Under the pieces are notes generated by a model. The model was not told where the DNA came from and searched no databases. It was given only the letters and a program-made list of their open reading frames with translations. The translations under genes were made by a program, and so were the position numbers. A stretch of DNA of 62,244 nucleotides, the filler included, from Basidioascus undulatus (taxonomy: Eukaryota): NCBI GenBank assembly GCA_000826855.1. It is 16 parts of 16 records of this genome, joined end to end, with 100 filler letters (N's around TTAATTAATTAA, not from the genome) between each part and the next. Parts side by side here need not be neighbours in the genome. Positions count along the whole stretch, not along the records: positions 59,756 to 62,244 come from JTLS01002736.1; 15 more parts are not named here. The stretch is one strand, 5' to 3'. Position 1 is the stretch's first letter. Every line of letters starts with the position of its first letter. Of the stretch, positions 59,538 to 62,244 are shown piece by piece.

Positions 59538-59755
59538 TGGGTACGGTGCTTGTACCACGGGCGTGGCCGAGGAGCAGGGGGGCGGCGAGCTGACTGAGAG
59601 GAGGCGGCCCCTCTTGCTGGGCTGGGCTTCGGCCTGGGGATGAGCAGGCTTTATGNNNNNNNNNNNNNNNNNNNNNNNNNNNNNNNNNNNNNNNNNNNNT
59701 TAATTAATTAANNNNNNNNNNNNNNNNNNNNNNNNNNNNNNNNNNNNNNNNNNNN

Positions 59756-59824
59756 AGTCAGATACTCTACCATTGAGCCAGCCGGCCGTGACCGACGCAG
59801 GGATCGAACCTGCAACCCCCTGAT
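59756..59824 (-). tRNA. tRNA (Trp-like) halves in permuted order: 3' half 59824-59789, 1-nt spacer, 5' half 59787-59756
   Basis: The minus strand reads A-TCAGG-GGGTT-GCAGG-TTCGATC-CCTGC-GTCGGTC-A, then C, then GGCCGGC-TG-GCTC-AATGGTA-GAGT-A-TCTGA-CT[contig end]. Acceptor (GGCCGGC/GTCGGTC) and anticodon (TCTGA/TCAGG) stems pair between the halves. The anticodon itself is missing, so Trp is inferred from the body sequence. Confidence 0.85.
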
Positions 59825-60577
59825 CTCGACTACCACCTGCTTATGCCAAGTGGTGATCGTTGTCTCTCATAAGTCGATTATATCAATTAGCCGCCAGCCG
59901 GAGCCCAGGATTCAGGCAAACATCTTCTTTAACCAACAATCCGGTCGCGACATAAATACTTCTGGAACCGTTGCATGGCGAACGTTATTGTAGGATATAG
60001 CTGCAGCAGGCTCAAGTGTCACCGCAAGCAAGGTGTCAAAAGGCCGCCGGGCCTGGCCATACTGTTGCTCCACCTTGCACAACATTTTTCTTTGGCTTTC
60101 TTCCGTTGCCCCTGAGTCTTTTATTGCGGGGAAGGCACTCCACACACTTGATGTCCGTGTCGGCTCCGACCTGCATCATGCTGAGGCTCATGCCGGAGCT
60201 ATGCGAGACCCTACTTAACTGCAAGCCTTGAGCACGGGATCGGCTTTACATGAAACCAAAATCCTTTCCGTATAAGGGATACGCAGAGCATGTTAGCGGT
60301 TGAGAGTGTCAATGTACAGGCGGAGGCGCACCTAAGCTCCCGTGGACACTTCGTCGGTTTGGAGGAGAAGGACAGTAGTGATGGTAGAAGGGGTCGCAAT
60401 GAACTTGAGAATGTCCTTCTCGACAGGGATTGGAACTGAATCGAAGATGTAACTGGCTTCTAAATCGTTTTTTTGGGGACGACAATGCAGGCAGGGTTAA
60501 GCTGTCGGCTTGAGCATAGTCATCGGCAGTATATCAAGCTGAGGCTGCCCCTTCAAGAGGTTCACGAGTGATAGGGA

Positions 60578-61234
60578 ATGGACTACCAAAAGTGGAAGAA
60601 CCCTGTTTTTTACCCTTTGTCCTGCAGTGTTCTTGAGCTACGACTTGAAAACAAGCAACAAGTGGGCTCGACGTTTCAGTTCGGTGCAGTACACAGCGTC
60701 ATACTGGGGGATACAGCCCCCTCCCCTCCCCCCCCCGCACGTGACCATCGAATTCTGCGACCGAGTGCGCTGTTCCCCCTGCACCCCACCTTTCCATCGC
60801 TGTCTCTTACAATTACCCCCTTATCCCGACAGTGTCGCTGGCTCCACCGCGCAACCTGGACCCAAACCGAGCTCTTCCTCACCTTCCCCCCGCCCGCCCT
60901 GAAGTCCATCTCGCTCGTCTCCCTCAACGCGCCCGAGACAGGCGGGCGCTTCCGCGTATGGCTGGGCCTGGGAGATGGGACGGAGCAGAGGCTCGTGTGG
61001 GACCGGAAGATCGAGGGCGGGTTCCCGGAACTCAAGGTGCTGGTACGTCCCGTTTCCCTAGATTCATTCGCTGGGTGAAAGGAGAATGGGGGACTTATGA
61101 GGAGGGAGAGCATACAGAAGCAGAGGATCAGGGATCTGGTCAGTCCAGAGAAGGAGCTGGGACATTCGGATAAGAAGGAGAAGGACAATGAGGGCGAGGA
61201 GAAGACGAGTTCAGCTTGCCAGTCTGTGCTCTAG
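60578..61234 (+). CDS. Rdx/SelW-family thioredoxin-like protein (Cys-type); start codon uncertain
   Basis: VTIEFCDR|CRWLHRATWTQTELFLTF...TGGRFRVWL...VWDRKIEGGFPELKVL|KQRIRDLVSPEKELGHSDK; the CxxC is formed across an intron. Confidence 0.88.
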
Positions 61235-62244
61235 GTTGATGAATAGTACATTCATATGAATTGATATCGTCATTGTTGTTTTTCCTCAACGCGGCTGCTG
61301 GATCGCTGGAGACATCGACTCTGTTCCTGGGCTGCTGGGCTGTCGCCGGCACTGTCGGGTTGTGGGTAGCCGACTGCAAGTGCAGTTAGGGATGGGCATG
61401 CCTTGGGCATACTCTCATCAAGGGCTCTTGCTGTGCTCAAAATTATGAATGATGCATAGAGATTCAAGCCCAATGCCTTTGCGGGGCGCAGCGCACTCCA
61501 AAGTTGCATGTCGGGACAGGCGACTTTGGATCGTAAACTAGGCAGACCCTACGAACTAGAGACGTCCATCTTCATGGCGAAGTCTCATGCGCGACTGGCA
61601 TTTGTTATTTATCACAGTTTAGAAACGCAATGTCGGTATATTTCCGTCACAAGACATTGGCATATGATTAAATCAAGCAGCCATGACAAGTCTCACAACC
61701 TCGCGCACCCACCTACGTCCACCATGCCCTTTCCCCCGCCCATCTCACAATGTCCCCAACAAAACAGACAGTTGACCTCCCACAAGCACTTCCATTTACC
61801 CCCACAGGGGCCTGTCGGGTCGCATGCCCCGGCGCGCGCCTGCTTGTGGTAGAAGGTAACGGCCCAGCGCTGAGGGCGTAGGTCGACACCCCGCCGAACA
61901 GTCGGCGTGGCGAGTCGGGCACTGCAGTGTTTGAACCGGGTTGTGGCCATGGTTTTGATGTTTTACATTGTGCGAGTGCGGCGAATGGGTGTAGAGGGTC
62001 CAGTAGCTTGGGCGGCCCCGCCTGAGCTCTCGCGAATCGCTGTGACGGTTTCTTGCAGATCGTTGCGCTGAAGGTGCAGGAGGTCGTCAGAAACCATGGA
62101 CGAGGATGGAGCTGAACTGGGTGCCTTACGAGAGCCTCCTCCAGAGGTGCAGAGCTCATCTCGCGCTTTGGGAAGCCGGAAGTGTACGTTGGTTTAGTGA
62201 GATGCTCTGGGGTTTTGGGACCCAGGGTCTGCAAGTCGAGGACC

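Follow-up and report, generated by a model that had tools for sequence, protein, structure and literature searches.

Does the tip of a small contig of the fungus Basidioascus undulatus carry a tRNA gene whose two halves are encoded in permuted order, or are the same two pieces part of something else? The locus had been read in an earlier note as one circularly permuted tRNA-Trp gene with a single intervening base, implying maturation through a circular intermediate. The window analyzed here, that is the whole stretch of DNA (62,244 nt), is composed of 16 contigs, all ~2.5 kb long except for one of 23.1 kb, joined by 15 artificial linkers (N run, TTAATTAATTAA, N run); the linkers are artificial and therefore any feature crossing a spacer is an artefact. 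The permuted halves are located at the extreme tip of a complete 2489-nt contig (59756-62244), the last one in the window. The elements of the region are given below in positions of the window.

59656..59755, no strand: artificial inter-contig spacer (N run, linker, N run), non-biological
59787..59756, minus strand: tRNA-Trp-like 5' half, G1 to U33, cut by the contig end (sequence, Rfam tRNA model)
59788, minus strand: single spacer C between A73 and G1 (sequence)
59824..59789, minus strand: tRNA-Trp-like 3' half, positions 38-73 (sequence, computed pairings)
59825..59843, minus strand: leader common to the repeat family (loose ends of read contigs)
59872..59899, minus strand: possible decayed 5'-half relic, ~47 nt upstream of position 38 (permissive alignment)

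Along the minus strand the 3' half comes first, comprising the 3' strand of the anticodon stem (TCAGG), the variable loop, a canonical T-arm (GCAGG-TTCGATC-CCTGC), the 3' strand of the acceptor stem and the discriminator A (A73 = 59789). It is followed by the single C, which could be C74 of the CCA tail, and then by the 5' half, 32 nt long with position 17 absent, which displays U8, A14, G18G19, a D stem of 4 bp, C32 and U33. This order, at exact coordinates, is the one the earlier note had described, and its remark that the anticodon loop is cut off after two bases by the end of the contig also holds. The complementarity it had claimed between the halves was borne out by computed pairings, with 5 Watson-Crick and 2 G-U pairs in the acceptor stem and 4 Watson-Crick and 1 G-U in the anticodon stem (TCTGA/TCAGG); the D stem has 3 Watson-Crick pairs and 1 G-U. 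Moreover, the B box GGTTCGATCCC (59811..59801) is found ahead of the A-box region TGGCTCAATGG (59780..59770) on this strand. Both pieces are plainly tRNA-derived, and the arrangement stands above chance because of this and because the junction recurs in many copies. In the case of the amino acid, we take the halves to be probably those of a tryptophan tRNA, on the basis of a D-arm, anticodon stem, variable loop and A73 like those of eukaryotic tRNA-Trp.

When ARAGORN was run on the whole window it returned 0 tRNA genes, a silence that is expected because the layout is both cut and permuted. The tRNA model of Rfam matched only the 5' half (model positions 1-32; 17.8 bits, E 2.8), with the match cut at its 3' end. 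The cloverleaf as encoded was calculated at -21.3 kcal/mol vs -22.1 kcal/mol for the MFE, and the MFE of the stretch was no better than that of shuffled sequences (z -0.15).

We then placed the k-mer contigs of read runs on the stretch, the reference being started at 59756. Runs X1 and X2, of ~35 Mb of contigs each, account for 97% of the words sampled from 59756-60755, and the assembly may itself have been built from them. Word depth in the unique part of the contig was 20.8 in X1 and 46.2 in X2, and the summed depth from 59756 to ~59843, which is not to be equated with copy number, was 40-150x that of the unique remainder of the contig, as displayed by the following bins.

59756-59789: summed word depth 1880 (X1) and 5705 (X2)
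59790-59823: summed word depth 3190 (X1) and 7662 (X2), the highest of the stretch
59824-59857: summed word depth 855 (X1) and 1746 (X2)

A total of 47 contigs of X1 and 46 of X2 were placed on the stretch with 90-100% identity, which by classes (>=99%, 95-99% and 90-95%) corresponds to 23/14/10 contigs in X1 and 20/15/11 in X2. Fourteen contigs of X1 and 13 of X2 lie only partly on the stretch, and their right flanks are unlike one another. The right-flank loose ends listed come from at least 12 contigs in X1 and at least 9 in X2 and are found behind 59819, 59834, 59835, 59836, 59839, 59843 and 59844, the copies diverging from the contig locus at 59834-36, 59839 or 59843-44. The stretch is one member of a dispersed family having at least a dozen loci. 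Within the 62,244-nt window no further copies of the permuted stretch were found, nor any repeats common to its 16 contigs.

The A73-C-G1 junction is real DNA, and not a misassembly of the contig tip, because it lies within k-mer contigs obtained independently from two read sets; the earlier note had asked whether reads span this point, and misassembly is contradicted. A junction unitig without differences covers 59766-59818 at a depth of 298 in X1 (~14x single-copy), and another with 1 difference covers 59763-59818 at a depth of 175 (~8x single-copy), their X2 counterparts having depths of 650 and 473. Moreover, a contig from a soil metagenome of a separate study (X3) is identical to 59756-59836 over 81 bases and then continues into yet another flank. 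No loose ends were observed at 59787-59790 or at 59824-59826 among the 14 of 19 listed, thus conventional tRNA-Trp arrangements of the same halves were not seen in well-supported contigs. All four junction unitigs start at 59818, the very point to which a branch at either 59788 or 59819 would shorten them, and they therefore do not speak against other continuations after A73.

A 93-nt contig of set X4 revealed a variant in which 59796..59767 is directly joined to 59829..59767, giving a 63-nt head-to-tail unit whose D loop runs directly into the leader. The word TGGTAG is present in the leader (59835..59830) and in the D loop (59772..59767), exactly 63 nt apart, and slippage or unequal exchange between these two words accounts for the variant; the 63-nt units are devoid of the 5' strand of the anticodon stem and of the anticodon loop. 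On the other side, contigs extend beyond 59756 by 4148 nt (X1 record 1) and 18471 nt (X2 record 9), X1 record 2, with 1 difference in 40 letters, extends 2974 nt beyond the same point, and a 45-nt unitig of X4 runs from 59796 to 4 nt beyond 59756, ending just after tRNA position 37. The end of this unitig, the extension of X1 record 2 and the stop of the contig at 59756 suggest that near-identical copies separate soon after the anticodon loop, which would fit an element of ~100 nt as well as introns or bodies that differ between copies.

From the original proposal of a permuted tRNA-Trp gene, then, the permuted order is retained as real and reproducible; the single gene, and with it the implied circular-intermediate pathway, gives way to a repeat family with 13-14 contigs per run showing differing right flanks, in which the 90-100% identity of the copies and the 63-nt head-to-tail variant point to amplification of a tRNA-derived element.

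The reading we favor, and to which we give an even chance, is that the stretch belongs to a repeat which derives from tRNA-Trp, was recently amplified and is dispersed; its most likely identity is a SINE-like retroposon or a pseudo-tRNA that has been amplified. We consider a single working permuted tRNA gene less likely than a mobile or pseudogene family of tRNA origin. The multi-copy status, the differing flanks, the real junction and the 63-nt head-to-tail variant all support the repeat. We infer that the family is of retroposon nature, that it originated by a template jump and that its copies do not work as tRNA genes. Each copy, on the minus strand, would be made of a short common leader, the 3' half up to A73, one spacer base and the 5' half starting from exactly G1. 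Such a head may have arisen by end-to-end fusion of two tRNA-derived RNA copies, in which a reverse transcriptase at the 5' end of its template (G1) would have jumped to A73 plus the first C of a tRNA-Trp or pre-tRNA-Trp; A73 and C joined to G1 is the product expected from an end-to-end template jump. The fused unit would afterwards have been amplified, and slippage between the TGGTAG words would have yielded the head-to-tail variants. In this scheme it is the repeat, unresolved by the assembler, that made the contig stop within the element.

Both components of this proposal have counterparts in filamentous fungi. Fungal SINE families, as described in the excerpted text of PMC5063351, comprise about 10-160 copies (~100 for Mg-SINE, ~160 for Foxy), and the family studied here resembles Mg-SINE, Foxy and AfuSINE2 in being short and dispersed, with tens of copies and differing flanks, in a genome of fungal size (~35 Mb). 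Unlike them, its tRNA halves are permuted, with the B box before the A box, it starts 48-56 nt upstream of G1 and the part common to its members may be only ~100 nt. As for the junction, the LINE reverse transcriptases of a filamentous fungus fuse RNA copies directly via template jumps, and the Magnaporthe chimeras known as MINE and WEIRD/Mg-SINE/MGL, in the excerpts of PMC2104539, likewise have two RNA-derived pieces of the same orientation joined directly. In the present family an RNA 3' end (A73 + C) closes the upstream piece, and the downstream piece opens with an RNA 5' end (G1). The published chimeras differ in that their 5' part is full-length and it is the 3' part that is truncated, most of them being single events, according to the same excerpts (PMC2104539), whereas in the present case the 5' part is partial and the fused unit has itself been amplified.

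Several features speak against the repeat. The B box precedes the A box, whereas the internal Pol III promoter of tRNA-derived SINEs has them in the reverse order, and the 5' edge is clustered at 59834-59844 rather than scattered as random 5' truncation gives. The short conserved leader is something that a permuted gene would also need; the element, if its common part ends soon after the anticodon loop as X1 records 1 and 2 hint, would measure only ~100 nt, short for a SINE; the lack of conventional tRNA-Trp arrangements of the same halves among the 14 of 19 loose ends listed counts here too; and the partial 5' part departs from the full-length 5' and truncated 3' parts of the chimeras in the excerpted text of PMC2104539. 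A body, 3' tail, target-site duplication or LINE-related end would lie to the left of 59756, beyond the contig, and none was seen. If the tRNA-derived repeat is the correct interpretation, its permuted halves would give a fungal SINE-like element a head of unusual architecture, may be the footprint of end-to-end reverse-transcriptase template jumps on a tRNA, and would constitute a recurring trap for tRNA annotation and assembly.

The same layout would be expected if the family consisted of many working circularly permuted tRNA-Trp genes, which we regard as unlikely; the broader proposal that its members are either such genes or a transcribed, tRNA-shaped RNA of ~100 nt seems to us similarly doubtful. 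Each copy would in that case contain only the leader, the 3' half, one base, the 5' half and a short trailer. The transcript would fold via the anticodon stem, the splicing endonuclease would cut at 37/38, a ligase would circularize the product, and RNase P together with tRNase Z would remove the single spacer base. The likeness to the permuted tRNA genes of Cyanidioschyzon merolae, prasinophyte algae, a nucleomorph and Thermofilum pendens, as given in the excerpted part of a 2014 review (PMC3978253), is seen in that the two halves share a strand with the 3' half upstream, the halves are complementary, the break falls at the canonical 37/38 site and the intervening sequence, of 1 nt between A73 and G1, is inside the range of 1-74 bp, a value of 1 bp having a precedent in the tRNA-Tyr of T. 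pendens. The likeness is judged on the leader, the 3' half and the truncated 5' half; an anticodon, trailer, BHB motif or terminator, which would lie beyond the contig end, was not seen, and this counts against the interpretation. In its favor, the as-encoded cloverleaf is less than 1 kcal/mol from the MFE, the short leader is conserved among copies, the G at -3 could pair with C32 judging from the sequence, a TATAA is present at 59882..59878 in the flank of the contig's copy, and the loose ends listed do not include a well-supported case of the same halves in conventional order.

Nevertheless, a family with at least 13-14 loci, copies down to 90% identity and ragged 5' edges has the look of amplification and decay, and one of its variants is devoid of the anticodon arm. 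tRNA-Trp is normally a low-copy gene, which also weighs against many working copies. The stretch differs from the known permuted genes in being many-copy with sequence variants and in having a host outside the lineages reported in the excerpts of PMC3978253; the 34 permuted tRNA genes counted there belong to six algae and one archaeon, none being fungal, and our literature search on permuted tRNAs in fungi found no fungal case among the titles and abstracts listed. Should the copies be expressed and processed to maturity, fungi would join the lineages that have permuted tRNA genes, and a permuted gene spreading as a repeat would bear on how permuted tRNA genes arise. A tryptophan tRNA, or a mimic of it, would then be made from a spreading element by a route of cutting, circularization and re-opening, and would be without precedent among permuted tRNAs both in lying outside algae and archaea and in being mobile.

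It could also be argued that the 5' half belongs to an ordinary tRNA-Trp gene, probably intron-containing, that the contig end truncates, an orphaned duplicate of a 3' fragment lying upstream and both having spread together; we find this improbable. Introns are frequent in fungal tRNA-Trp genes, which is in keeping with such a gene, and the 45-nt unitig of X4 ends, 4 nt beyond 59756, at the point where copy-specific introns would begin. On the other hand, a second 3' half with a unique trailer predicts loose ends before ~59789 and a conventional 5' flank predicts them behind 59787, and neither is found among the 14 of 19 listed; at least 13-14 loci are, besides, many for tRNA-Trp. The region upstream of the 3' half was searched for another 5' half. 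With strict scoring only a 9-mer matched, and its score was equaled by 25 of 500 shuffles; when scoring was permissive, the 5' half could be aligned over its full length to 59899..59872, with 22 of 32 columns matching, and that score was reached by 8 of 1000 shuffles and by none of 58 control windows taken from this contig. The earlier claim that an intact 5' half is absent upstream is thus upheld, the permissive match being weak and decayed. That match is a weak hint of a 5'-half relic, obtained post hoc with the 9-mer noticed first. Located 47 nt upstream, such a relic fits a decayed upstream copy with an intron, and its weak and post hoc character limits what it lends to the ordinary gene.

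We also considered a contiguous tRNA-shaped non-coding RNA with the module layout of YrlA, that is, not a decoding tRNA at all, and judge it very unlikely. It would consist of a T-arm, a capped acceptor hairpin and a D-arm closed by the anticodon stem, the order that the YrlA RNAs (Rfam RF02553) have in the excerpted text of PMC4201824. YrlA was the best Rfam match over 59756-59843 (33.6 bits, E 6.8e-5, cut at the 3' end), a score below the gathering score of 69; the alignment and the fold contain the elements that make up the tRNA-like module (T-arm, acceptor hairpin, D-arm), and in a near-MFE fold the acceptor hairpin (6 bp, 4-nt loop) persists, as do the D-arm and the closing stem. A full-length locus of YrlA type from the metagenome collection (L001:452-562, minus strand) scores similarly, with 33.0 bits, also below the gathering score. 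Since L001 reaches only this value at full length, the YrlA model responds to the order of the modules and not to the Ro-binding stem. YrlA RNAs are bacterial or phage-borne, their genes being located at most 2 kb from rsr, and in metazoan Y RNAs the tRNA-like module is "not apparent", as stated in the excerpts of PMC4201824, whereas the window is eukaryotic and the stretch is multi-copy; no rsr context was recognized in its contig, of which two ORFs were scanned against Pfam and gave no family, and the 3' strand of a Ro-binding helix would lie beyond the contig end. A functional RNA gene would not, moreover, be expected as many dispersed copies with ragged edges.

That the junction is an assembly artefact, as its position within the last 69 nt of a small contig and inside a repeat might suggest, is hardly credible when contigs of two read sets cross 59763-59818 at 8-14x single-copy depth and that of a third study spans 59756-59836 without a difference.

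Returning to the tRNA-Trp-derived repeat, counterparts were sought in other collections. The exact 27-nt junction had 0 matches in the metagenome collection, in which a loose T-arm..D-arm pattern had 1 match, L001, an unrelated AT-rich locus. The loose pattern gave 0 matches in viral contigs and 3 in prokaryote genomes, all three being ordinary adjacent tRNA genes that were discarded. Literature searches on tRNA-Trp or tRNA-half repeats and on fungal retroposons found no element with the permuted layout among the titles and abstracts listed, and a search with literal sequence words returned nothing relevant. A second module resembling T-arm, hairpin and D-arm was noticed by eye at ~L001:640-700, ~100 nt upstream of the first and followed by an ORF start; two tRNA-mimic RNAs of a phage or a bacterium may lie here in tandem.

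Two other kinds of element were rejected. A primer-binding site of an LTR retrotransposon would show the TGG of the CCA complement, which is missing from the plus strand, and the 36 + 32 nt of the halves far exceed the length of such a site. Termini of Helitrons or of inverted-repeat elements were discarded as well, the sequence having neither a CTRR end nor, at the distance usual for such elements, a hairpin near its end.

In regard to the host context, the window is eukaryotic and a fungal nuclear origin is plausible. A Pfam scan (E 1e-5) of 30 ORFs of the window assigned a family to 0 of them; two of the 30 belong to contig 59756-62244, for which 13 other ORFs are listed, and this 2.5-kb contig carries no recognizable genes. 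The 23-kb contig has few long ORFs. One ORF of the window has an ABC-transporter domain, its nearest Atlas clusters being eukaryotic ABCG/PDR-type, some of them ascomycete.

Some minor observations concern the flanks. The TATAA word at 59882..59878 (minus strand) lies 35-39 nt upstream of the 5' edge of the family, in copy-specific flank, and may be due to chance. The right flank at 59844-59856, compared by eye to the X1 loose-end consensus behind 59843, showed 8 of 13 matches and 5 transitions, and the consensus flanks of X1 and X2 have a short motif in common; homology within one subfamily may extend beyond 59843. Finally, there is a second repeat boundary within contig 59756-62244, at 60708-60755, where contigs of X2 and X4 link 60716 onward to other upstream sequence and the word depth goes up in bin 60708-60741.
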